64,000 nucleotides of DNA from Candidatus Woesearchaeota archaeon (GTDB lineage: Archaea > Nanobdellota > Nanobdellia > Woesearchaeales > UBA10216), in contig JACPBX010000003.1 in NCBI GenBank assembly GCA_016180085.1, forward strand, positions 64,001-128,000, in the 5' to 3' direction. The number at the start of each line of letters is the position of its first letter. The stretch's first letter is position 1. The notes under the pieces were generated by a model. The model saw only the letters and a list, made by a program, of their open reading frames with translations, had not been told where the DNA came from and did not search any database. A program made the position numbers and the translations under genes. Below are positions 216 to 11,786 of this stretch, piece after piece.

Positions 216-2255
216 TCAGCTTTTCGTAGCATTGATGTGTCTGCTTACTTCGTCAGTTATCTGTGCAAATGTCTTATTCGTAATTTCCAGCACGTAAACC
301 GCAGTTGTCAGGTTTGGTGCGTTTACGTAGTTTTCGCCAGCCGTTACGTAGTTAAGTAGCCATCTTTGGCTTCCTAAGCTGGCTACCCAGTCGAACCTGC
401 CTGTGGTTTGGTTGTTGCTGAGGTTTCGTACATAAACTTGTTGTTCTTTGTATTTTGTTGCTGTTGGTATTGAGCTGTTGATGCCAAGCTCTATTGCTGT
501 GTCGCCTTCTGCTTCGTTAGCGTTTCCTCCGCCACCGGCAGCAAGCGTCCAGCTCAGTGTTGTAGAGTTCAGCACGAAATAAGTGTCTGGTCTGTTGACT
601 CCTGTGAAGCTGCAATTGTATCCTATTCCCGTTATTGAAGTTGCCAGCGTGTTTTTGACGGGGTTTGTTCTGTTGCCTATCGTGACGTTCTGAGTGTTTT
701 GGTGGTTGGCGTCGAACACTTGGCACGTCGGCACAGAAACGGAACTGTATCTTTGGTGGAAGTCCAAGCTGAGATTAACAAAGCCGACGCTTGCTGTACT
801 GTTCAAAACCTTACTCTCAAGAGTAACGTTATTGTATTTCATCGGGCTTGTTGTGTTGCTTACTGAAAAGTTTGTGACGTTCCATCTCGTAGCAGCACCG
901 CCTCGCTGGAACATGAAAATTGGCTTTCCGCTATCAAGATTAGACAGGTCATGAGCCACCCAGCCAGTATCTTCATTTCCGGCAGCAGTTCCATCTCCCA
1001 TTGTGCACTTCGCGTGTGTCTTGTTAAAGGTGAAAGTGAGGTTATACCACGTGCCAGTTGACCCGCTCCAAGTTGGATTTGCCTTTGCTGTGCCTGCGCC
1101 GTTGTCGTATTGGAGAAAGTAGAGGACGCCGTCGCCAGCGGCTCCTAAACACAACAAGCTGTCTCCGCTTGAACTGCTGTAAGGGTTGTTGTCTGTTGCT
1201 CCTATCGCGTCCCAGTTTATTCTTATTCCTACCCCCATCGTTACAGCCCCTTCCAGCTGCATCATGTGCGTGCTAATCATGGTTCCAACTTCGTTCTGCT
1301 GCACAGAAATGTTGTCAGCCCTGAAAGTTGAGCAGGAGAAAGTGTTTGTACCGTCGCAGGTTGCAGAGTAAGAGAAAGCGTACCCTTTATCGCCTGCTGG
1401 GGCGAATTTTATGGTAACTCCTGTTGTTCCGCTTGTTGTGGTATTCACCCACTGCGGGTTGGTAGCGTATTCCTGGTCGTCCCAGGTGTCCCAAATGGAA
1501 GCGTTCAGAGGAACAAACACTCCATTGACTACTCCGCCGGTAGTTCTTGACTGGTTTATGTCGTTTGCGTTGTTGAAGTCGTCCACTGCTGTTGTCGCGT
1601 CGATTATGGGGTCAATTTCTATCCTTGTGGTTTGTGTTGGGCTTAGCGTTGATGGATGCAGTATCGTATCGTATTTAATCATGCCGCCGTAGGTTTTGGC
1701 TTTCGGTTTAAACCTTACCTGCTCTCCTACGAAGAATTGTGCTGTGTAGTAGTAATCGCTGCCATTAACGCTTTTTGCTGCCGGGACGTTTACCCATTCC
1801 CTTACAGTTATGGCTGTTGTGCTGGTATTTACTGTTGTCTGATTGTAAAATGATGAGTTCTCAGGGTTGAAGAGCTGTTCTACAGAGATGTTGTATATTG
1901 TAACGGTTTTTTGCACAGCCCTCAGTACTTCCACTGCATTGATGTAGCCTTGGTCGTTCTTGAATCTTAGCGTGATGTTCAGTCCTTGGTCAAAAGCGGT
2001 GTAGTTTGCGTACTGATAAAGTACTGTTTCTCCTACTTTGGCTATTTCTGGTGTTATGTTAAGGCGTCCTACTCCGCCTACTTCGTGCCATATGCTGGTT
2101 CCGCTTTTGGTTCCTCCTATCTGGAGTTCTGCAGAGCTCACGCTACCGGCTTGGAGCAACAGTAGTGAAAGGGTCATTACAGCAATAATTAACAGAACTT
2201 TTAGTCCTAACAATTGCCTTACCGTATTTTCTGCCATTTCCCAAATCTTCTTCAT
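216..2255 (-). CDS. Secreted surface glycoprotein, Thr/Asn-rich beta-sandwich protein with a discrete C-terminal domain
   Basis: Hydrophobic signal peptide (LLGLKVLLIIAVMTLSLLLLQAGSVSSA), many N-x-S/T sequons, and an AAGGGG linker before a ~100-aa C-terminal domain. Start moved to ATG 2255, which has GAGGTG upstream and a TATA box at ~2281-2290. No recognisable catalytic motif. Confidence 0.75.
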   Translation of the reverse strand: MKKIWEMAENTVRQLLGLKVLLIIAVMTLSLLLLQAGSVSSAELQIGGTKSGTSIWHEVGGVGRLNITPEIAKVGETVLYQYANYTAFDQGLNITLRFKNDQGYINAVEVLRAVQKTVTIYNISVEQLFNPENSSFYNQTTVNTSTTAITVREWVNVPAAKSVNGSDYYYTAQFFVGEQVRFKPKAKTYGGMIKYDTILHPSTLSPTQTTRIEIDPIIDATTAVDDFNNANDINQSRTTGGVVNGVFVPLNASIWDTWDDQEYATNPQWVNTTTSGTTGVTIKFAPAGDKGYAFSYSATCDGTNTFSCSTFRADNISVQQNEVGTMISTHMMQLEGAVTMGVGIRINWDAIGATDNNPYSSSSGDSLLCLGAAGDGVLYFLQYDNGAGTAKANPTWSGSTGTWYNLTFTFNKTHAKCTMGDGTAAGNEDTGWVAHDLSNLDSGKPIFMFQRGGAATRWNVTNFSVSNTTSPMKYNNVTLESKVLNSTASVGFVNLSLDFHQRYSSVSVPTCQVFDANHQNTQNVTIGNRTNPVKNTLATSITGIGYNCSFTGVNRPDTYFVLNSTTLSWTLAAGGGGNANEAEGDTAIELGINSSIPTATKYKEQQVYVRNLSNNQTTGRFDWVASLGSQRWLLNYVTAGENYVNAPNLTTAVYVLEITNKTFAQITDEVSRHINATKS

Positions 2256-2280
2256 TCCAAACCACCTCATAAACGTTGAG

Positions 2281-2298
2281 TTTTTATATAATTTTTAC
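2281..2298 (-). promoter_or_regulatory. Archaeal BRE/TATA promoter for the 216-2255 gene
   Basis: Minus strand reads GTAAAAATTATATAAAAA about 26-40 nt upstream of ATG 2255. Confidence 0.55.
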
Positions 2299-4616
2299 GT
2301 GATTGTAACGTTCAAAGCCTCCAAGTCATTCCATAAGCTGTTGACAGCAGTGAAATTGGCAGCGAAAGTGCCAGTTGCTGTGTAGTTATAAGTCACAAAA
2401 ACTATGGCATTCTCCTGCGGTTGCAACGTGATTGGGCTGCTGCTGCTGACTATTCCGTTGCCGGTGTTCAGGCTCCAGCTCACATTTGTCATATCAACAG
2501 TCATGTAGTTCTTAACGTAAGCCTCAAAAGTCCTCAAAGAGCCGCTGCTGTTAAGAACGGAAAAGTTGCCCACGCCAAGATATTCGACCTCAACAGGAAT
2601 GCTGGAGGAGGCTGTAAGACCGCCGCCCTGTGCCGTAGCCGTAACCGAGTAGTCGCCTTGAGCTGAGTAGTTGTGCTGAACATACACTAACAAAGATTTG
2701 CTGGAGTTAAGGTTAGTATTTTGAACGTTGCTTACAACATTCCCATCACCAAAGTCAAGAGTCCAATTAACGCTGACGTTAGTGACATCATTGTTAGTAA
2801 TGGAAAACTCAAACACCTTTTCTGATAAGTTGGAATAAAGAATTTTTAAGCCGCTTACGGAAAGGGCGCCGGCTGAGCTGACAGACAACGTCTTAGTGGC
2901 TGTCACGCCTTCCGCAATTGCGGTAGCGTTAGCTGTAACGGTGTAGTCGCCTTCGGAACTGTAATTGTATTCGAAATGTACGCGTATTGTTTCATTTATG
3001 ACCAGACTTGCGTTCCGGGTGCTGTTTATAACGGTGCCATCCCCAAGATTGAGCCACCAAGTGACATTATTAACCACGGATGAACCATTATTCTCAATAA
3101 CAAATTCAAATACTTTGTGGGTTGCCAAGGAGTAAAGCTGAGATAAGCTGGCAATTTTGAGCGAAACTACAGGAGGCAGTGGTGGGGGTGTGTTGTCGAC
3201 AAAATTGTTCGACTCATTGCTCTCATCAACCAAATTATCTAAATCAACAATCGCTACAAATAAGGAATCATTTGTAGTGTTTGAAGCTGAAAAATTAAAG
3301 ACAGCTGATGCATTCGCTGCCAAATAAGCAAGTGCAGATGAATTTTCATAAGTCCTGTTGTCAAACACGTCCAGAACAATGTTAAAAGCTGGTGCCTCCC
3401 CCAGGTTTGTGATGTTGATTGTGATGTTTGTAAGGTTATCCCCTAAAAATGAAGCATTCAGTGAAACAGCCAAATCCGGCAATGGCGGTCTTTCAAAATC
3501 TGTGTAATAAGTAAAGTTTACCTCATGCGCGTCATACAAGATATCCTTGGTAACATTTTCAACAGACAACTTTGTGAAAGAAAGCTTGAACGCGCCATTG
3601 AAGTACGTTGAGTAGATAACTTTGCCTAGAACTTCGGTTGTCACTGTTTGCGTGCCTGTACTCAATGTGGAATTTTTTGCCACTGTAGTTACGTATTCGC
3701 CTGAGGAATCATAAAGGGCAGTCTCTAAACTGTAATTGCCTGCTTCTGTGATGTTCAATGTAAAGTTAAACTGCAGCGCCTCTGAAAGATTGTTTGAGTT
3801 ATTGTCAAAAGCTCCGCTTGCGATGCTCTTTATGTAAGAACTCTTGGCAAAATCGGCATAGTTATACGATGATGTATTGTAATTAACAGTGAGTAACTTC
3901 TCACCAATCTTTACTTCTCCTATGCTATAATTGCCAACGTAGTGAGTTGATTTAATCGTTTCATTGTCAAAATCAACATCAACTGTTTGCGATGGCGTTG
4001 TTAAAGTAACTTCCTTTGTGGAAGAAATACTCTTATTATTGTACTTCAAATAAACCGTAATGCTGGTGGTTTTATTTTCTGTGACGCTTAAGTTCAATGT
4101 AACTCTGAGAAGGCTATTGCTTACAGGAGCATCCGATATTGAAGTTACGTTGACTCCTTTCTCGTAACTCAGATAATTGTTTGTCTGGACCTTGTACTTT
4201 GTGAAAACCAGTCCATAATCTTGCCCTCGCACTTCAACTGAATAATTATATTGGTTAAGGTTCAATAGTCTGGTGTCAAAAAGCACTAGTGCACTCTGGC
4301 TGGTTGAATTAACAGTGGCATTTGTATAATTTTTCAGTAAACCTGTTTTCTCATTCAGACCCACTATGAATAGGTACGTCGAACTGTTCAAGGCATTAGT
4401 AGTCAAGTTGATTATTAGCGTATCGTTCAACCCATTACCGTTCTGGTCAGTCATATAATCGCTAAAAGTGGTTACGTTAATAACGCCCGTATCGAAATCA
4501 TAATCATAAGAATCAATAAGTTTGTCAACAGTCATATTTGCAGCTAACACGGCAGATGAGCCTGCAATTAATAAAATGAAATACACTAACAACTGCCCGA
4601 CCAGTTTGCTATTCAT
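2295..4616 (-). CDS. Secreted cell-surface protein with CARDB and three PKD-like Ig-fold domains
   Basis: Signal peptide MNSKLVGQLLVYFILLIAGSSAVLA. CARDB motif PDLAVS...TNLG...VDLDNLVDESNESNN. Three repeats of W-x-L-x-x-G-D/N-G...Y-N-Y-S/T-x-x-G-x-Y/F. Very dense N-x-S/T sequons. Start moved to ATG 4616 after GGGGGGAGA. Confidence 0.85.
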   Translation of the reverse strand: MNSKLVGQLLVYFILLIAGSSAVLAANMTVDKLIDSYDYDFDTGVINVTTFSDYMTDQNGNGLNDTLIINLTTNALNSSTYLFIVGLNEKTGLLKNYTNATVNSTSQSALVLFDTRLLNLNQYNYSVEVRGQDYGLVFTKYKVQTNNYLSYEKGVNVTSISDAPVSNSLLRVTLNLSVTENKTTSITVYLKYNNKSISSTKEVTLTTPSQTVDVDFDNETIKSTHYVGNYSIGEVKIGEKLLTVNYNTSSYNYADFAKSSYIKSIASGAFDNNSNNLSEALQFNFTLNITEAGNYSLETALYDSSGEYVTTVAKNSTLSTGTQTVTTEVLGKVIYSTYFNGAFKLSFTKLSVENVTKDILYDAHEVNFTYYTDFERPPLPDLAVSLNASFLGDNLTNITINITNLGEAPAFNIVLDVFDNRTYENSSALAYLAANASAVFNFSASNTTNDSLFVAIVDLDNLVDESNESNNFVDNTPPPLPPVVSLKIASLSQLYSLATHKVFEFVIENNGSSVVNNVTWWLNLGDGTVINSTRNASLVINETIRVHFEYNYSSEGDYTVTANATAIAEGVTATKTLSVSSAGALSVSGLKILYSNLSEKVFEFSITNNDVTNVSVNWTLDFGDGNVVSNVQNTNLNSSKSLLVYVQHNYSAQGDYSVTATAQGGGLTASSSIPVEVEYLGVGNFSVLNSSGSLRTFEAYVKNYMTVDMTNVSWSLNTGNGIVSSSSPITLQPQENAIVFVTYNYTATGTFAANFTAVNSLWNDLEALNVTIT

Positions 4617-5019
4617 TCTCCCCCCAACTAGTATAATCACCATAAGACGTATTGCTCAGCGTCTTCACAGGCTTGACCGCAACCTCAAAATTGTTATCAA
4701 ACAAAATCTTCCTGACAGCGTTGGCTAAAGAAATATTGTTGTTCCTAAGGTGAATTTTAGTTTCATTTCGGCTCATTAAATCCATCATGGAAATACCAAG
4801 AGTGTCAAAATCGTCTATGTAAACCGTGCGGGAAGCGCTATTTGTCCCCTTATCCAAAAATATGCTTCTGGCGCTGATTAAGCGCTTCACAGCAGCGATA
4901 TCGCCCTGGATTTGGTTGCCATACGCCAAAATTTCCGGCTTGTTAGGGAGATTGATATTACCTTCATAGCTTAAGTTAGAAAAAAGTGATGCATTTTTAA
5001 CAAACGCTCTTTTTCGCAT
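4609..5019 (-). pseudogene. Truncated third copy (orphan cassette remnant) of the pre-hydrolase module of the 1150-aa protein
   Basis: Residues KPEILAYGNQ...KTLSNTSYG align closely with the same segment in 5575-7092 and 7685-11128. The homology stops before the hydrolase domain and the ORF runs into the RBS of the next gene. Confidence 0.75.
4639..4941 (-). repeat. Homologous segment, copy 3 (~100 codons)
   Basis: Begins at the K codon of KPEILAYGN (4941) and ends at the G of TSYG (4639). Confidence 0.85.
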
Positions 5020-5020
5020 G

Positions 5021-5578
5021 TTACGCTCCTCCGCTTAATCCAATTATTAACATAATCAAACCAGATATGCCGAATGTGATGTAGGCCAATATGAGAAGAA
5101 TGACTAAATAAGTCAAATAAAAGACCACTGACTTTATCAGACCTATTAAGGGCTCAGATTTGATGTTTTTGTACGTATAAAAAGTTAAAAAAATAGAAGA
5201 GACTATGTGGCTTAGTGCGAGGCCACTAATCAAAATAGTATCCCGCGCAGTTGCATTCTTTGAAAACAGAAATAATGGCAAGTTGATAAGTAACAATGTG
5301 ATTGCTGATGGAATATAAACAAAGAGCGTATTTTCTTTTGGAAAGCTGTGAAAAAGTTTCATTAAAAAATGCGAAAAGATTTTATTAATGAGGTAAACCT
5401 GCCCATAAAAGATGAGTGTGAGAAGTGATAAGTATACAACTATGGTTGTCTGGATTGAGGCCGCATATAGAAATGACCAGAAAACAAAAAATGCCAATGA
5501 TAACGCAAGTAAAAAATTAACAATTATTTGGAGTAATTTACTCTTTCCTAGTTTAGTTTTTGCCATCTTTTGCCTCAT
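5021..5578 (-). CDS. Small multi-pass membrane protein (5-6 TM), putative immunity/partner protein of the upstream hydrolase cassette
   Basis: Almost entirely hydrophobic helices and very AT-rich. ATG 5578 overlaps the TGA of the upstream hydrolase ORF (ATGA); 5566 is an alternative start. The function is inferred from context only. Confidence 0.7.
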   Translation of the reverse strand: MRQKMAKTKLGKSKLLQIIVNFLLALSLAFFVFWSFLYAASIQTTIVVYLSLLTLIFYGQVYLINKIFSHFLMKLFHSFPKENTLFVYIPSAITLLLINLPLFLFSKNATARDTILISGLALSHIVSSIFLTFYTYKNIKSEPLIGLIKSVVFYLTYLVILLILAYITFGISGLIMLIIGLSGGA

Positions 5579-7002
5579 ATTAAATTGCAATCATTTTTAC
5601 TGTTTGAAACGTAGTTTCCATTACTACTCAACTCTTTATTCTTTAAAAACCCTTTAATAATGGAAAGTACAGGTTCGTACTCCGGTAGAGTATTGACTAT
5701 TTTCTTTGGGCCAATATGCATTACATTGCTGAAACTCACATAGTATTTGTTGCTTGAATTTATGTTGCCGCATGCTTCAGAAATATCCGCATTTGCCACT
5801 ATTCCATCTGTGCCTTGGCCAAGTGGATGAGGTATAACTTTCAGTACCTTATCAAGTTTACCTTGAATGAACAGGGTATTATTCAAATTAACATTTTGCC
5901 CTACCTTTGGTTCATTTGGGTCATTTATCCAACTTTGAAACTCACTGTAAATTTCAATAGACATCTTGTCTGGTAAACTGCTGGCACCTTGACCAACGAG
6001 ATACCATAAAAGTTCTTTCGGCTTCGTGTAGGGGAAGTAGGAAGGGGGAGAAGCAGTCAATTTGTCAATGTTTTTGCCTAATTCCACCACTAAATTCGCC
6101 ATAGTAACATGCTGTTTGCCTTGGTCTTTCAAATCCTGGATAATACCGAAAGAATCTTCTGATTCTTTTAGTAACCATATTAGACTAGCTAACTTTGTGA
6201 AGTTTCCCGGGCACCCAATCCCCACAAAAGTATCAACAGGATAAGGTGATAGATTAGTATAAAGGTACTGCCCCGTATTATAATCAAAGTAGTAACCGCT
6301 GTTATTCTTGCCTGTCTGGTGTGCTTCCAGGCTTTCCAGAGCAGCTGAGCAACCCAAGCTGAAGCCTACATAGTCAAGCTTGTTTTTGCCGCTGTACTTC
6401 TGAATTCCCGCTATAGAAGCAGGCCAGTAAAAGTCCTTCAAATCAGCAAAGGTGTAGTTTGGGCAGTTGCTGCCGCAGCCATTAGTGGAGGTGTCGTCGG
6501 TGTAAGGTCCGCCAACCATCTCAATAAGCCAAGCGTCAAAACCCTCGCCGGTCAATTCCCTGGCGAAGTCTTGCCATGAGAACAAGTTGCTGTGAATGCC
6601 TCTTGACAATACCACTGGCTTGTCACTGATGCCTGTCGCATTTCTATAGTCTGAAGAAAAATCAGAATTAACGTTCTTCACTCTTAGAACTGTTGAGTTA
6701 CCATATGAAGTGTTGCTGAGAGTTTTCACAGGCTTGACGGCTACCTCAAAGTTATTGTCGTATAAGATTTTCCTCACAGCGTTAGCCAAAGAAATATTGT
6801 TATTCCTCATGTGCAGCTTAGTCTCATTCCTACTCATCAAGTCCATCACGGAAATACCTAACGAGTCGTAGTCATCAATAAAAACAGTATACGATTTGCT
6901 GTTAGTGCCCTTATCCAAAAAGATATTTCGAGCACTGATTAAACGCTTAACAGCTGCAATGTCCCCTTGAATTCCATTGCCGTAAGCCAAAATCTCAGGC
7001 TT
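5575..7002 (-). repeat. Homologous segment, copy 2 (full hydrolase cassette)
   Basis: Starts at KPEILAYGN (7002) and is colinear with 7685-9127 to the stop codon. Confidence 0.9.
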
Positions 7003-7092
7003 CCTTGAGCAACTATCTGAAAAGGAAAAGTATAAACTAATAACGCTGCTTGTTTTCTTGCCTTTTCCAAATTTTCTGTGTAGTTTAGTCAT
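5575..7092 (-). CDS. Alpha/beta-hydrolase (lipase-like, GxSxG) orphan C-terminal cassette without signal peptide
   Basis: Nucleophile elbow DYVGFSLGCS, candidate acid in TDGIV and His in VMHIG. Paralogue of the C-terminal ~480 aa of 7685-11128. In-frame ATG at 7092 lies 1 nt after the upstream stop; the ORF-track start at 7128 overlaps the upstream gene. Confidence 0.8.
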   Translation of the reverse strand: MTKLHRKFGKGKKTSSVISLYFSFSDSCSRKPEILAYGNGIQGDIAAVKRLISARNIFLDKGTNSKSYTVFIDDYDSLGISVMDLMSRNETKLHMRNNNISLANAVRKILYDNNFEVAVKPVKTLSNTSYGNSTVLRVKNVNSDFSSDYRNATGISDKPVVLSRGIHSNLFSWQDFARELTGEGFDAWLIEMVGGPYTDDTSTNGCGSNCPNYTFADLKDFYWPASIAGIQKYSGKNKLDYVGFSLGCSAALESLEAHQTGKNNSGYYFDYNTGQYLYTNLSPYPVDTFVGIGCPGNFTKLASLIWLLKESEDSFGIIQDLKDQGKQHVTMANLVVELGKNIDKLTASPPSYFPYTKPKELLWYLVGQGASSLPDKMSIEIYSEFQSWINDPNEPKVGQNVNLNNTLFIQGKLDKVLKVIPHPLGQGTDGIVANADISEACGNINSSNKYYVSFSNVMHIGPKKIVNTLPEYEPVLSIIKGFLKNKELSSNGNYVSNSKNDCNLI

Positions 7093-7093
7093 T

Positions 7094-7672
7094 TTAAAAA
7101 CCATGAAGCAGTGTGCGAATAATTCCAAAACTTAATACTATAGTAAACCCCGTTATCTTACTGATGAATATCAAAGAAAACCAGAAAACTGATTGTGGTA
7201 TTAATACGGATTTTAAAAATGAATTACGGATTTTGTGCTCCTTAAAGAAAAAGTATTGAGTTAAGGTTGTAACTGATATTATCAATGAAAGAAATAACAA
7301 TATTACTACTTCATTAAATAAGATTGGATCGATGGAATATCTTTGTTCAATAAATTTAATATAAATAGCCTTTGATTTGAAAAAAAGAGCTGTTACTAAA
7401 AATGCAAAGGACAAAGAGCTAAAGGATAAAACTTTAATAAAGATGTTTTTAAATTCTAAATTCTTTCTCATTAGTGAGTTTTTAATATAACCGAGCAAGG
7501 TCAAGAATATTAGGCCGGAATAAATAAAAGATAGGATAATGAGGACTTTTAAGCTAAAACCTCCCTCAAAATTAATGCCTGTGTCTGTGCTAAATAACAT
7601 TCTGAAACTAGTTAAATAAGAAGCAAAAAAACCAATTAATAATGCATTAATAGCAACCAAGGTCTTATTCAT
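7094..7672 (-). CDS. Small multi-pass membrane protein (~5 TM), putative immunity/partner protein of the 1150-aa hydrolase
   Basis: 192 aa, about 5 hydrophobic helices, extremely AT-rich. Strong archaeal RBS GGGTGA between the upstream stop (7685) and ATG 7672. Confidence 0.75.
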   Translation of the reverse strand: MNKTLVAINALLIGFFASYLTSFRMLFSTDTGINFEGGFSLKVLIILSFIYSGLIFLTLLGYIKNSLMRKNLEFKNIFIKVLSFSSLSFAFLVTALFFKSKAIYIKFIEQRYSIDPILFNEVVILLFLSLIISVTTLTQYFFFKEHKIRNSFLKSVLIPQSVFWFSLIFISKITGFTIVLSFGIIRTLLHGF

Positions 7673-7684
7673 GCTTAATCACCC

Positions 7685-9127
7685 TCAAATCATATTACAA
7701 TTATTTTTCCCGTTAGTCCCGAATAAACCATTTTCTGAAACTGTCTGACTCTTTAAAAACGATTTGATAAGGTTTTTAACCACCCGGTCATCAGGTAAAA
7801 CTGGCGGTATAAACGTGTGATATCTGTTATCGAAACTTGCGTACCACTTATTGCTTGAGTTTATGTTACTGCACGCTTCTGCTATGTCTGCGTTCGCTAC
7901 AATGCCATCAGTGTTTTGCCCTAATGGGTGTGGTGCTTTTAAATAAAAAGGATACTGCAGCGGGATCAAAATTGTGTCAAGTTTACCTTGGATAAGCAAA
8001 GTGTTATTCAAAACAACATTGTGTCCTAACTTTGGTTTGTTCGGGTCATTTATCCAACTAAGAAATTCCTCATAAACGTGTATTGACATTTTAGGGCCTA
8101 ATGAATCAGCGCCTTGCCCTGCCAAGTAAAGCAGCAGTTCTTTAGGTTTTGTGAAAGGGAAATACGAAGGGGGAGAAGCCGTTAATTTATCAACGTTTTT
8201 GCCTAACTCAACAACTAAATTTGCCATAGTAACGTGCTTTTTGCCTTGGTCCTTTAAATCTTGAATAATGCCAAAAGAGCTTTCAGACTCCTTTAAAAGC
8301 CAAGTCAAAGAGGCCAACTTGGTAAAGTTTCCCGGGCATCCTATCCCTACGAACGTGTCCACTGGATAAGGTGACAAATTTGTAAACTTGTACTGTCCTG
8401 TGTCGTAGTCAAAGTAGTATCCTGTATTGTTTTTGCCCGTCTGGTGCGCTTCCAAGCTCTCAAGAGCTGCTGAGCAGCCCAAGCTGAAGCCTACGTAGTC
8501 AATCTTGTTTTTGCCGCTGTATTTCTGAATTCCTGCTATTGATGCAGGCCAATAAAAGTCCCTTAAGTCATTAAATGTGTAATTAGGGCAGTTGCTGCCA
8601 CAGCCATCGGCACTGGTGTCATCAGTGTAAGGACCTCCAACCATCTCAATAAGCCACGCATCAAAACCCTCACCAGTAAGCTCACGAGCGAAGTCCTGCC
8701 ATGAAAAGAGATTACTATGAATACCCCTGCTTAAGACCACTGGCTTGTCACTGATGCCGGTTGCGTTCCGGTAGTTAGCAGAGAAATCGCTGTTAACATT
8801 TTTTACCCTCAGAATCGTTGAGTTGCCGTAAGATGTGCTGCTCAAAGTTTTCACTGGCTTTACGGCTACTTCAAAATTGTTGTCAAAAAGAATCTTCCTA
8901 ACGTCATTCGCGAGCGTGATATTATTATTCCTCATGTGCAGCTTAGTCTCATTCCTCGTCATTAAGTCCATTACTGATATTCCAAGAGTGTCATAATCAT
9001 CAACGTATACTGTGAAATATTTGCTATAAGCGCCTTTATTCAAAAAGATGTTCCTGGCATTAATAAGGCGCTTAACAGCGGCAACATCGCCCTGTATTTT
9101 ATTACCGTAGGCCAAAATCTCAGGTTT
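7685..9127 (-). repeat. Homologous segment, copy 1 (C-terminal part of the full-length gene)
   Basis: From KPEILAYGN (9127) to the stop codon. Confidence 0.9.
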
Positions 9128-11128
9128 GCCGCTATAGCTATTGACAAAGTCAGGACCGCTCTTAACGACTCCTGCATAGTCTTTTTGCATGGACTTAGCA
9201 CTACCCAATATCGTACTGGTTATATTAAACGGCTCGGAATTTGACACTCTCGGATGGCCCACAATAATTACGACATCCGCGTCCGAACTGCTTGCCGGCT
9301 CAACAAAAGTGCTGATGTATTCCTTTATAAGCTCGTTCAGGATGGAGAAAGAGGGGTCCAGCCGGACATCAACGTATGCCTTGATTGGCTTTACAGCAGC
9401 CCTGAAAACGTAGTTGTTTGTCTCGTCATCCTCCTTAACTGCGTCGTTAGAGTCCACGTATATGTGCAGGAAATCAGTTGATGCTATACTGCTTAAAGTG
9501 AATGAGGCGTTTTTTTCAGAACCTGCAGTTAACGAAATAGTTGTTGATTTGCTTTCCTTTGTGACGCCTTCTTCGTCCAGTCTATAAACCGTAACTTGCA
9601 CATTAGACGTTACGCTGGAAGAATGAACTGTAACGTTCACCCCCTTACTTGTTATGTTAACACAAACATCACTCTGCGTAATGTAAAGATCATTTTTGGG
9701 GCTGCACTTGGTGCATTCGAAGTATAGAAAATCAACGTCTCCATTACTGTCTATTTGTGTTGTTTTGGCGTCACAAACAGTGCTGTTATCAGAACACTTT
9801 ACAGTAACGTTCTGGTCAGAGCTACATGTGACATTAAGGTTCAGTATCCTTTGGCCGAGGCTGTCAGTAGTGCCGTTATAGGTGGCATTCCAGTAAACGT
9901 TAAGGCCTGAAAGTGGAGCCCCGCTGCTGTCCTCGGTAAGCATTTCTATTGAGCCTGTGCAGTAGGTGGGTGGTCCTTTGCAGTAGCCGGAAGTACACAG
10001 GATGCCGCCATCATCATTCCAGCAGTCGCTGTCTTGGGAGCAAGGCTGGCCAACTGCTTTTTTGCATGGTAAAGCTGGAGTAGTGGGGTTCGTTGTGACA
10101 TTTTCATCATGGTCTGAGTCACAAACATAGCTTGGTCCTGCCTTTACAGCGCACGAAAGCATAGCATTGGTATAAAACACGCTATCCGTATATCCTCCAC
10201 CGCCGCAAGTCCTGTTGGTATACTTAAACTGCTGATAGTAATTGTTGCTGCCATCATTTACGCAAACGTGCTTCTCATCAGTCGCCCAGCCGCCGCAATT
10301 GCCAGAATAGCAATCTGCGTTTTGAGTGCAGATATGGTTTACCGTAGAGCCATCTTGGAGTGTGCACGGCACCGGGATACTTCCCGTTCTCGTAGTTACT
10401 TCCTGGTCGTCATGAGGTGTATGCGCGGTATTTGGGTCGCAAACAGTATTCTGTTTAAAATTCAGGCAGCTTAAGTCACTCTTAATGTTTTTCCAGTCAG
10501 TAGCACCTGAACCGTTTTTTCCCTCTAAATCGTAATTATCTGTGCCTGCCTTGTTGTTGTCAGCCTCCTCAGTAGCACTTGCATCACAATCATACTTTTG
10601 AGGATTAACAACCCAAAAGCTAACTTTAACCAACGAATCTGAATGCATATCACTTTCTGAATTGTCGCAATCGTAATAGACCGTTGCGTTCACGTCACTT
10701 TTCTGAATATTTGACGTATCAACTCCACTACAGCCGTCACATACTCTTTGCGGGACATCAACTCCTTCCTTGCAATTCGCTTCGATATCGCAACTGGCTT
10801 TATTGGCATCGTTCATGTTTTGGGGAATTGAGAAAGAATCACAATCATTTACCCCACAACTCGAACCACAGCCATTCGAATCGTAATAGCAGTTGTCGAA
10901 TGTTCCGTCATTGTTCCAGTCTAGGCAAACAAAGTCGGCAGAGGCACCAGCAATACCGTTCACTTCAAAGGCTATGTCATCATCAGTCCAAATAACACCA
11001 TCATCTAACCCTGCCCCATTCACAGCCCAATCATCATAATAGTCAATTATAGGTAAAGCCACTGCAAAAAGTGGCAATAGTAACATAAGCAAAGAAAAGT
11101 TCAAAATACTAAAGGCTGCCTTGTTCAT
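7685..11128 (-). CDS. Large secreted multidomain protein: Cys/Asp-rich N-terminus, CARDB domain, C-terminal alpha/beta-hydrolase (lipase-like)
   Basis: Signal peptide MNKAAFSILNFSLLMLLLPLFAVA. Many Cys modules (e.g. PCSQDSDCW...CTSGYC). CARDB end VDSNDAVKEDDETNN. DYVGFSLGCS nucleophile, TDGIV acid and RYH His. Start moved to ATG 11128, 1 nt after the upstream TGA. Confidence 0.85.
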   Translation of the reverse strand: MNKAAFSILNFSLLMLLLPLFAVALPIIDYYDDWAVNGAGLDDGVIWTDDDIAFEVNGIAGASADFVCLDWNNDGTFDNCYYDSNGCGSSCGVNDCDSFSIPQNMNDANKASCDIEANCKEGVDVPQRVCDGCSGVDTSNIQKSDVNATVYYDCDNSESDMHSDSLVKVSFWVVNPQKYDCDASATEEADNNKAGTDNYDLEGKNGSGATDWKNIKSDLSCLNFKQNTVCDPNTAHTPHDDQEVTTRTGSIPVPCTLQDGSTVNHICTQNADCYSGNCGGWATDEKHVCVNDGSNNYYQQFKYTNRTCGGGGYTDSVFYTNAMLSCAVKAGPSYVCDSDHDENVTTNPTTPALPCKKAVGQPCSQDSDCWNDDGGILCTSGYCKGPPTYCTGSIEMLTEDSSGAPLSGLNVYWNATYNGTTDSLGQRILNLNVTCSSDQNVTVKCSDNSTVCDAKTTQIDSNGDVDFLYFECTKCSPKNDLYITQSDVCVNITSKGVNVTVHSSSVTSNVQVTVYRLDEEGVTKESKSTTISLTAGSEKNASFTLSSIASTDFLHIYVDSNDAVKEDDETNNYVFRAAVKPIKAYVDVRLDPSFSILNELIKEYISTFVEPASSSDADVVIIVGHPRVSNSEPFNITSTILGSAKSMQKDYAGVVKSGPDFVNSYSGKPEILAYGNKIQGDVAAVKRLINARNIFLNKGAYSKYFTVYVDDYDTLGISVMDLMTRNETKLHMRNNNITLANDVRKILFDNNFEVAVKPVKTLSSTSYGNSTILRVKNVNSDFSANYRNATGISDKPVVLSRGIHSNLFSWQDFARELTGEGFDAWLIEMVGGPYTDDTSADGCGSNCPNYTFNDLRDFYWPASIAGIQKYSGKNKIDYVGFSLGCSAALESLEAHQTGKNNTGYYFDYDTGQYKFTNLSPYPVDTFVGIGCPGNFTKLASLTWLLKESESSFGIIQDLKDQGKKHVTMANLVVELGKNVDKLTASPPSYFPFTKPKELLLYLAGQGADSLGPKMSIHVYEEFLSWINDPNKPKLGHNVVLNNTLLIQGKLDTILIPLQYPFYLKAPHPLGQNTDGIVANADIAEACSNINSSNKWYASFDNRYHTFIPPVLPDDRVVKNLIKSFLKSQTVSENGLFGTNGKNNCNMI

Positions 11129-11129
11129 T

Positions 11130-11786
11130 TCATTCACTTGTGCGGTTAATGCTTTCTCTATGGACTTTCATCCTTTCCCACCGAGCAAACGTCCCTTTTT
11201 TGATGCACTCATTAGCTGAGCAGGAATCACATTCTTCAACCTGGCCGTAATCTGTGCCGTTACAATAAAGCCAATGCAGGTTTCCATCAACGCATTCGTA
11301 ATGGTCGGCAAGGCTGCATTCATGATCAGAGCCTACGTAGAATGTATCTATGTTGGAATTAATAACGCCATCTAAGTCTTTGAAATTTCCTCTATGCCTA
11401 GTAAGCCATCCAGAAACGTAACTCGTTCCACCAGAAGCAAGGTAAACATCCTCCCCATTTACCTTTAAATGGGTGCCTTGCTGAGTTACAGGTTCAATAA
11501 GCTCTACTGAAAGCTCATGTTTTTCAGGTCCCGTCAATTTTTCAAAAACCTGTGATGTTCTGTTCATTGACAGAAGAACACCGGTAACGTGTTTAACTCT
11601 CTCTTCATAAGCGATATGTGATAAGCTCTTTTCTCCCGTCGCTAACCTGTTCACGATTTCTTGGATTTCAGTAGCATTCGCAAAAACAAGATAGCTGAGA
11701 AAAGTCAAGCTAACTACAAGCGCAATCAAAAGAACAAATAATTGTTTTTTAACTTTAACCGCCCCATTTAAATATGGCTGCTTCAA
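11130..11786 (-). CDS. Secreted or membrane-anchored hypothetical protein with a Cys-rich C-terminal module
   Basis: N-terminal hydrophobic helix (LFVLLIALVVSLTFLSYLVFA) and C-terminal C-x7-C...C...C-x2-C-x4-C. The start is uncertain (TTG at 11786). Confidence 0.7.
   Translation of the reverse strand: MKQPYLNGAVKVKKQLFVLLIALVVSLTFLSYLVFANATEIQEIVNRLATGEKSLSHIAYEERVKHVTGVLLSMNRTSQVFEKLTGPEKHELSVELIEPVTQQGTHLKVNGEDVYLASGGTSYVSGWLTRHRGNFKDLDGVINSNIDTFYVGSDHECSLADHYECVDGNLHWLYCNGTDYGQVEECDSCSANECIKKGTFARWERMKVHRESINRTSE

Follow-up and report, generated by a model that had tools for sequence, protein, structure and literature searches.

Exchangeable lipase-like hydrolase tips with variable membrane-protein partners in a Woesearchaeota genome resemble a polymorphic toxin system

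Polymorphic toxin systems such as Rhs-CT/RhsI, CdiA-CT/CdiI, and MafB/MafI combine an exported carrier with a conserved body, a variable C-terminal enzyme, and a coupled downstream gene that varies with the tip. In bacteria, the lipase effectors Tle1-4 of the type VI secretion system (T6SS) are paired with Tli immunity proteins, which are soluble periplasmic proteins or lipoproteins. Lipase-like tips (Tox-ABhydrolase-1/2/3), subtilisin processing domains in Sec-exported toxins, and Imm-CdiI with two transmembrane (TM) helices were described by Zhang et al. (2012; PMC3482391). Archaeal polymorphic toxin systems have been predicted, none of which had been experimentally characterized as of 2021, and the VARTIG module of Thermococcales is a surface protein with a hypervariable, recombining C terminus whose authors noted a polymorphic-toxin-like organization, its function being unknown (PMC8416519). 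Here, we describe a five-gene array on the minus strand of a 64,000-nucleotide stretch of a Candidatus Woesearchaeota archaeon contig (the window; JACPBX010000003.1, positions 64,001 to 128,000). A main gene for an exported protein with a C-terminal lipase-like hydrolase (the tip) is followed by a small membrane-protein gene (TM1), a 5′-truncated copy of the main gene (orphan-1), a second membrane-protein gene (TM2), and a further truncated copy (orphan-2). The locus may be viewed as a DPANN variant on the known polymorphic-toxin-type layout, and the explanation that we favor, with about even confidence, is a DPANN-specific (Woesearchaeota-type) polymorphic effector/immunity-like cassette system.

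The window locus and its relatives share the carrier, tip, and coupled-gene arrangement of the Rhs, CdiA, and MafB systems and display four architectural hallmarks of polymorphic toxin systems: an exported protein with a variable tip, exchange, a co-varying downstream gene, and orphan cassettes. As in Sec-exported polymorphic toxins, there are truncated spare modules of tip plus partner, mosaic exchange, an island-like distribution, and subtilisin domains on many carriers. Unlike those toxins, the main protein lacks RHS/YD, TPS/FHA, PAAR, MafB-N, LXG/WXG, and VENN-type modules in Pfam/NCBIfam scans, and the locus holds no dedicated secretion genes. The array occurs in a DPANN archaeon, its partners are polytopic membrane ORFans, a conserved surface-protein gene accompanies it, and the orphans have coupled start codons and share a left junction that falls inside a folded stalk domain. 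The likeness to Rhs and contact-dependent inhibition loci that had been drawn in the initial annotation thus extends to layout, spare cassettes, and exchange and stops short of unrelated toxin folds and silent, displaced orphans. Membership in Rhs or CdiA was rejected on the Pfam scan.

With Tle/Tli pairs, the array has in common a GxSxG Ser-Asp-His alpha/beta hydrolase beside a putative self-protection gene, with the membrane as the presumed target; unlike in those pairs, the partners are polytopic membrane proteins and export is by signal peptide. Membership in a Tle family (e.g., DUF2235) was rejected, as there was no Pfam match at E ≤ 0.1 and the sole NCBIfam T6SS line was at chance level (0.071). 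The T6SS search covered the locus, and no VgrG or PAAR genes were present in the operon. Like VARTIG, the array pairs a large archaeal surface protein that has a recombining, variable C-terminal domain with variable downstream genes, whereas VARTIG belongs to a different lineage, varies an immunoglobulin domain, and is without hydrolase or polytopic-partner cassettes. We found no description of the hydrolase-cassette family in the searchable literature, the reach of which did not extend to Makarova et al. (2019, mBio) on archaeal polymorphic toxins.

Tip exchange was apparent when the window was compared with a syntenic locus, L010, from another Woesearchaeota metagenome-assembled genome (MAG). 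The main bodies are 83-98% identical and the TM partners unrelated; along the main protein, the two are only about 50% identical from residue 781 and 20-30% identical beyond about residue 921. A further relative, P0003, is about 90% identical to the window protein up to residue ~920 and about 25% identical beyond. The subtilase-borne P0002 matches the window protein at about 50% in the body and 75-90% in the tip, and P0004 and P0005 are about 65% identical in their bodies and 90-98% identical in their tips. The breakpoints of the mosaic fall close to VKNVNSDFS (residues 778-786) and to GIGCPGNFT (residues 931-939). The body tree unites the window with L010 (98 in the Shimodaira-Hasegawa-like approximate likelihood ratio test [SH-aLRT]), whereas the tip tree unites the window with P0002 (100) and L010 with P0005 (99). 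An approximately unbiased (AU) test on the tip data, with groups named after the trees had been seen, rejected the grouping of window and L010 (p = 3e-49); the converse AU test, run on the body data, did not reach significance (p = 0.285). The breakpoints, the conflicting trees, and the unrelated partners indicate that tip and partner are exchanged as units. The exchangeable tips anticipated in the initial annotation are therefore borne out, both between genomes and between different carrier proteins.

One allele that the initial annotation had proposed to look for, the tip of the second cassette on the main gene, did not appear: a metagenome scan with the orphan-1-specific C-terminal 171 aa recovered no close relative, nor any allele in which the main gene bears the orphan-1 tip. 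Contigs from groundwater DNA runs were compared with the array; their assemblies are fragmented at repeats. Three in-register contig joints were seen (6248→8385, with a period of 2125; 4713→6835; and 8963→6839), the first of them at main residue ~918, some 15 residues short of the GIGCPGNFT breakpoint. Each joint occurs in one contig, with 21-95 nt on the shorter side and 90% likeness, and may come from other strains or assembly effects; the joints were not counted as swapping evidence. Summed contig depth was greater on the conserved parts than on TM1, although such depth cannot rank parts.

The downstream gene co-varies with the tip. The locus survey comprised 55 species-representative loci and the window (56 loci, with 66 assessable hydrolase genes), and a partner was defined as an open reading frame (ORF) of 80-240 aa with ≥2 TM helices within 150 nt of the hydrolase gene, often with a 4-nt overlap. 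Such an ORF directly follows 57/66 hydrolase genes, against a background of 15% of ORFs, mostly these same partners. The nine hydrolase genes without one include 3′-truncated terminal fragments in three loci (L010, L011, and L018). The 57 partners form 37 BLASTP clusters, 30 of which are singletons, and their homology follows the C-terminal half of the hydrolase (0.88 versus 0.21 bits per residue). Partners were homologous in 40/51 cassette pairs with a similar hydrolase C-half and non-homologous in nearly all pairs with a similar N-half and a dissimilar C-half. One partner family could be modeled (alignment A3), with 14 members of 80-113 aa and three TM helices (L032:14500-14754, L052:9190-9435, and 12 others). 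Among 400 genomes, 9/10 assessable confident matches to it lay in hydrolase arrays, so that the proposed tie between partner and hydrolase held in the family where it could be tested.

In the window, similarity between TM1 and TM2 was undetectable, in agreement with the initial description of two different membrane genes. Given the AT-rich composition, stop-free frames of such length would arise by chance with probabilities of about 7e-7 (TM1) and 8e-6 (TM2), and the two are therefore unlikely to be chance ORFs. TM1 starts 12 nt past the main stop codon, with a GGTGA-like ribosome-binding site. No homologue of TM1 was found in 400 genomes of the same order, where a match in the unpublished genome G357 was at chance level and contained stops, and none of TM1 or TM2 among a collection of 5.8 billion proteins. 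Protein-atlas searches with TM1 and with the stalk domain returned sub-threshold leads only. A CPBP/Abi-type identity was rejected for both proteins, which had no Pfam match and no EExxxR or HxxxN/D motifs in their translations.

Two observations concern partners elsewhere. The 14-member family has a conserved short C-x5-C loop, followed by IPLLPG, between its first and second TM helices, and this loop is a candidate extracellular contact site for the hydrolase. In the complete Woesearchaeota genome CP060218.1 (L017, 9364-14743), small TM ORFs outnumber hydrolases, as a tandem pair follows the main gene and another two follow the last orphan; the surplus resembles an accumulation of extra immunity genes.

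An exhaustive HMMER search (E ≤ 1e-3) found 282 cluster representatives of the hydrolase family (50% identity clusters). The match is nearly always C-terminal in proteins of 1000-1900 aa, and many matches cover the stalk and the hydrolase N-half only. The named matches are DPANN, on carriers that include S8 subtilases and FG-GAP, beta-helix, VWA, and CARDB proteins. The succession of main gene, small gene, and orphan recurs in at least 15 related loci, as predicted: two to four hydrolase copies were present in 15/56 loci, and 39/56 had no spare copy within the examined flanks. In arrays, only the first copy has a signal peptide and a long body, and the later copies are 5′ truncated and signal-less, mostly with GxSxG kept. 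Orphans within one locus usually share their left end, and across loci the left ends differ, lying in CARDB, in mid-stalk, or at the hydrolase start; the shared junction suggests local tandem duplication of a unit made of the hydrolase 3′ part and the TM gene. Other toxin tips on the same chassis were not confirmed, as the stalk nearly always precedes this hydrolase in the 400 same-order genomes. Homologous loci thus show variable cassette number, tip swapping, and, in the partner family open to testing, membrane genes that keep to hydrolase arrays, the genomic pattern on which the initial annotation had staked its reading.

All five ORFs of the array were found where they had first been placed, and the truncated copies proved to be copies of parts of the main gene. 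Orphan-1 aligns with main residues 664-1150 over 490 aa at 80% identity (E = 0), and orphan-2 aligns with main residues 658-774 at 73% identity (E = 7e-56). Both start at about main residue 666, in the middle of the stalk domain. The AlphaFold2 (AF2) model of main residues 576-1150 gave a stalk with a predicted local distance difference test (pLDDT) score of 85-91, compared with 44-68 when an orphan-length piece was folded alone; KPEILAYGN (main residues 671-679, nt 9101-9127) is an inner beta-strand of this domain. As proteins, the orphans would lack half of the stalk fold and are therefore true 5′-truncated gene pieces. The orphan-1 ATG (at 7092) stands 1 nt past the TM1 stop codon, and that of orphan-2 stands 1 nt past the TM2 stop codon, behind GGAGG; on its 3′ side, orphan-2 is cut off at the ribosome-binding site and start of the following gene.

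Codon-level comparison of the window copies gave 82% amino acid and 72% nucleotide identity between main and orphan-1, with 39% identity at four-fold sites versus 27% expected, and orphan-1 retains a 517-codon open frame. The picture was similar for orphan-2. Across the orphan comparisons, synonymous sites are near saturation and the proteins remain 80-87% identical. Nearly saturated silent sites together with conserved proteins indicate that the orphans diverged under purifying selection and are not decaying junk. This history would fit either parts of genes that worked elsewhere or orphans that are themselves in use. At silent sites, the divergence of the copies is older than the split of the window and L010, for which the corresponding identities are 48% in the body and 61% in the downstream gene.

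The enzyme at the tip is a member of the alpha/beta hydrolase fold. Pfam/NCBIfam scans of the main protein gave weak CARDB and Abhydrolase_1 matches only. The GxSxG motif, GFSLGC, occupies main residues 883-888 and orphan-1 residues 255-260, and the putative triad is Ser885 (nt 8483-8485), Asp1077 (nt 7907-7909), and His1107 (nt 7817-7819). G-x-S-x-G, the Asp (of TDGIV), and the His are invariant in a 26-sequence family alignment, and both full hydrolase copies in the window retain the triad. A PDB profile search matched lysosomal and gastric acid lipases (1e-8 to 1e-6) and PhaZ7 (3.5e-4), with the match at 1e-8 spanning about 95 residues around the nucleophile. The AF2 model of the hydrolase (pLDDT 79; predicted template modeling [pTM] score 0.82) best matched dog gastric lipase (Z 24.8; root mean square deviation 3.4 Å over 280 residues), followed by PhaC (Z 22.4) and generic alpha/beta hydrolases (Z about 20-22). 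These results uphold the hydrolase end that had been called from its GxSxG motif, and the modeled fold suggests a lipase-like esterase, the substrate of which cannot be read from the fold. The tip resembles the mammalian acid lipases (1k8q/1hlg, gastric; 6v7n, lysosomal) and PhaZ7 in having a Ser-Asp-His triad with a cap domain, and differs from them in that identity is about 11-15% and the Pfam acid-lipase N-terminal domain was not hit. Six Cys in the hydrolase domain fit an extracytoplasmic enzyme.

At the N terminus, which is hydrophobic (signal or anchor), residues 1-400 of the main protein hold 27 Cys. Translation probably begins at the ATG at 11128, the start that the L010 orthologue supports; the public gene call (P0001, 1125 aa) begins 25 codons late, so that the signal peptide is cut off (11062-11137). 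Tips of the window type (7688-7702 and 5578-5592; also P0002 and P0003) end in the CaaX-like sequences C-N-M-I, C-N-L-I, C-N-Q-I, and C-A-Q-I, which could be a disulfide or modification site, and other tip types have different C termini, e.g., KEKLK. In one relative, P0006 (648 aa), the nucleophile Ser is replaced by Asp (G-Y-D-L-G), and this protein may be either an Asp-nucleophile variant or an inactive copy.

In the effector/immunity-like system that we favor, a Sec-exported multidomain carrier, N-terminally anchored or released, would present a lipase-like Ser-Asp-His hydrolase at its C-terminal end. The carrier would consist of the Cys-rich region, the CARDB-like part, and the Rossmann-like stalk in the window and of a subtilase or FG-GAP protein elsewhere. 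The unit of exchange would comprise the 3′ portion of the hydrolase gene, which encodes the cap and the region with the Asp and the His (in some cases the entire hydrolase), together with its coupled hypervariable membrane-protein gene, and spare 5′-truncated units would be kept downstream as recombination stock, as sources of expressed proteins, or both. Within the producer membrane, the partner would most likely bind its own hydrolase on the variable part that faces the membrane and keep the enzyme harmless. The hydrolase would most likely attack ester-linked membrane or envelope components of neighboring cells (hosts or competitors). Some Woesearchaeota have been proposed to attack bacteria (PMC9723730), which would provide an ester lipase with a target.

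Several points weigh against an effector/immunity-like system. Toxicity, target, and protection are roles that we infer from architecture and sequence. The tips are all of one enzyme family, with a conserved N-half and a variable C-half in the window family, unlike the repertoire of unrelated toxins in polymorphic toxin systems. The shared left junctions are better explained by tandem duplication than by a series of incoming tips, each displacing the last, and the coupling of the orphan ATGs to the preceding TM genes implies that the orphans may be expressed and are not necessarily silent. At the DNA level, the window copies share 72-74% identity, the longest exact match between main and orphan-1 being 32 nt, and exchange inside this genome must therefore be rare. 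The window is also an exception to the co-variation of tip and partner, in that its two full tips are 82% identical (1.40 bits per residue in the C-part) and their partners are unrelated. This would be unusual for cognate toxin/immunity pairs unless specificity resides in the last ~100 aa, where the main and orphan-1 tips mainly diverge (proportion of nonsynonymous differences [pN] 0.30, versus 0.07 in the N-half). Archaeal membranes are ether linked, so an ester lipase would be no obvious threat to the producer and the need for immunity would fall away, unless scavenged ester lipids make up the membrane or the enzyme acts on something other than a lipid. Finally, the position of the array inside a conserved surface-protein operon fits a variable envelope island equally well.

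That operon (216-11786) is tightly packed: its genes overlap by up to 8 nt or are separated by up to 24 nt, and the five junctions read directly have spacers of ≤12 nt. It encodes, in order, a 218-aa Cys-rich protein, the 1150-aa main protein, TM1, orphan-1, TM2, orphan-2, a 773-782-aa CARDB/PKD protein, and a 684-aa surface protein. GC content is 0.37-0.43 in the array region and about 0.50 across the remaining window. The array adjoins a glycan-synthesis operon, and in same-genus genomes without the hydrolase, FG-GAP and subtilase surface proteins occupy the corresponding place, upstream of a PKD-bearing gene. Taken together, the conserved surface-protein operon, the glycan operon, and the other surface proteins at the same place indicate that the array is a variable surface-protein island. 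None of 9 same-genus genomes yielded the hydrolase-stalk module, and 1/24 same-family genomes gave a weak match; the module is therefore accessory, and the system is sporadic and island-like in distribution. The nearest loci are all from Woesearchaeota, Pacearchaeota, or Nanoarchaeota MAGs.

This setting is the basis of the closest competing explanation, a surface enzyme that is held at the producer membrane by a small TM anchor or receptor and may process host-derived material such as scavenged lipids or polymers, its diversity reflecting turnover of the envelope island under host or virus pressure. We entertain it tentatively, as a possible account of the locus that is less probable than the effector/immunity-like system. 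The main protein is without a C-terminal anchor, so a docking partner would make sense, and co-variation of the partner with the hydrolase C-half would also be expected of a cognate dock. The array shares its operon with two other glycosylated surface proteins, and a homologue of the 782-aa protein, chiefly of its N-terminal ~480 aa, directly follows the array in 22/25 other loci with a match. The carriers bear adhesion and protease domains, and the surface proteins at the same place in same-genus genomes likewise agree with docking, as does the fast diversification reported for Nanoarchaeota surface proteins (PMC6142677). Ether lipids would make self-protection from an esterase unnecessary. 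Dependence on foreign lipids would fit the source genome (~1.0 Mb, 45 contigs, 83% complete), in which models for geranylgeranylglyceryl phosphate (GGGP) synthase (PF01884) and CDP-archaeol synthase/CarS (PF01864) had no match and two UbiA-type prenyltransferases are present; as the genome is incomplete, the non-detection is compatible with incomplete archaeal lipid synthesis or a foreign-lipid membrane and proves nothing. However, it is hard to see what purpose signal-less truncated copies that begin within a folded domain would serve for a housekeeping enzyme, hypervariable ORFan partners and cassette exchange between carriers are more typical of conflict systems, and the accessory distribution also argues against docking. 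A related non-weapon variant seems unlikely to us: the array would be a modular host-interface device of lipid-auxotrophic episymbionts, in which the small membrane protein docks the tip on the cell's own membrane so that host-derived lipids can be harvested or remodeled, with cassette exchange tuning host range.

The purifying-selection history of the orphans would also be expected if they were silent cassettes in the manner of pilE/pilS, cycling through the expressed site as gene-conversion donors that let the exposed tip of a surface protein evade hosts, viruses, or antibody-like binders, with no toxin or immunity involved. Orphans that begin inside a domain and have no signal peptides, and tips that are mosaic between genomes, agree with such a scheme. 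Nevertheless, we regard it as improbable: copies with the DNA identity and exact-match length given above are a poor substrate for frequent conversion, the strictly kept triad argues for selection on enzyme activity and not on surface shape alone, a membrane-protein gene for each cassette is unneeded for pure antigenic variation, and most loci have no spare copy in their examined flanks. Least credible, and very improbable in our view, is that the TM proteins are holin-like export helpers that release the adjacent hydrolases, signal-less copies included, as in holin/endolysin pairs or holin-dependent toxin release. Small hypervariable proteins with 2-6 TM helices do lie beside a lytic-type enzyme and before each signal-less orphan with its coupled start. 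However, it is the 3′ end of the hydrolase gene before it that each TM gene accompanies (present after signal-bearing single-copy genes and missing after 3′-truncated fragments), half of the stalk domain is missing from the orphans, and the viral contigs searched held no relative of the module.

We know of essentially no account of how DPANN archaea, which represent much of the diversity of archaea, attack their hosts, stay attached to them, or compete for them. The locus type is a concrete and widespread module (about 280 cluster representatives) that joins an intact lipase-like enzyme to a tiny candidate cognate membrane protein. If the effector/immunity-like reading is true, it would be a DPANN-native conflict system with membrane-embedded immunity; if the enzyme is instead docked, it would reveal how DPANN cells fasten and use surface enzymes. 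In either case, the paradox of an ester hydrolase in an ether-lipid organism bears on the targets of these archaea (perhaps bacteria) or on the composition of their own membranes.

Table 1. Features of the hydrolase array and its operon, in window coordinates
Feature	Position	Strand	Description
Upstream gene, 218 aa	11130..11786	-	N-terminal TM or signal, Cys-rich C terminus; stop overlaps main start
Main gene, 1150 aa	7685..11137	-	Signal/anchor, Cys-rich N region, CARDB-like, Rossmann-like stalk, C-terminal alpha/beta hydrolase
Stalk domain, main residues ~586-775	8813..9382	-	One Rossmann-like alpha/beta domain (AF2 model)
Lipase-like alpha/beta hydrolase tip, main residues 781-1150	7688..8797	-	Family alignment, PDB profile, structure match
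TM1, 192 aa	7094..7672	-	5-6 predicted TM helices, GC 0.28; candidate cognate partner (immunity/dock) of main tip
Orphan-1	5575..7128 (maximal ORF)	-	Signal-less 5′-truncated copy of main residues ~666-1150, triad intact; probable ATG 7092
TM2, 181-189 aa	5021..5590 (maximal ORF)	-	5 TM helices, GC 0.33; probable ATG at 5566 (181 aa)
Orphan-2, 136 aa	4609..5019	-	Stalk part only, main residues ~660-774
Downstream partner gene, 773-782 aa	2295..4616	-	Signal peptide, CARDB + PKD (Pfam), 53 N-glycosylation sequons
Surface protein, 684 aa	216..2270	-	Signal peptide; last gene of operon

The genes that flank the array are conserved to different extents (Table 1). The upstream 218-aa protein matched no Pfam family; it has a 62% identical counterpart at the same position in L010 and was found in no other locus. 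The downstream 782-aa gene is 81% identical between the window and L010. In same-genus genomes without the hydrolase, only its C-terminal ~290 aa (the PKD half) is conserved, at 77-81%. The 782-aa protein is thus itself mosaic: its PKD part is 77-81% identical in L114 and L115, where the N-terminal halves are unrelated, and its N-terminal ~480 aa co-occur with hydrolase arrays across many distant loci.

Loci of the DPANN type also occur in MAGs titled "uncultured Methanosarcinales archaeon" (L011, L030, L042, L048, L054-L057, L062, and L063). Among the records with this title is OZ246410.1, a 0.77-Mb "chromosome" of DPANN-like size, and the record taxonomy looks doubtful.

The 684-aa surface protein has a 45% identical counterpart that closes the L010 operon. 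In 7 other loci, residues ~586-683 of the 684-aa protein recur, at 35-49% identity, in the gene that immediately precedes the main gene. This C-terminal stretch of ~100 aa may be a shared anchoring or assembly domain of the surface operon.

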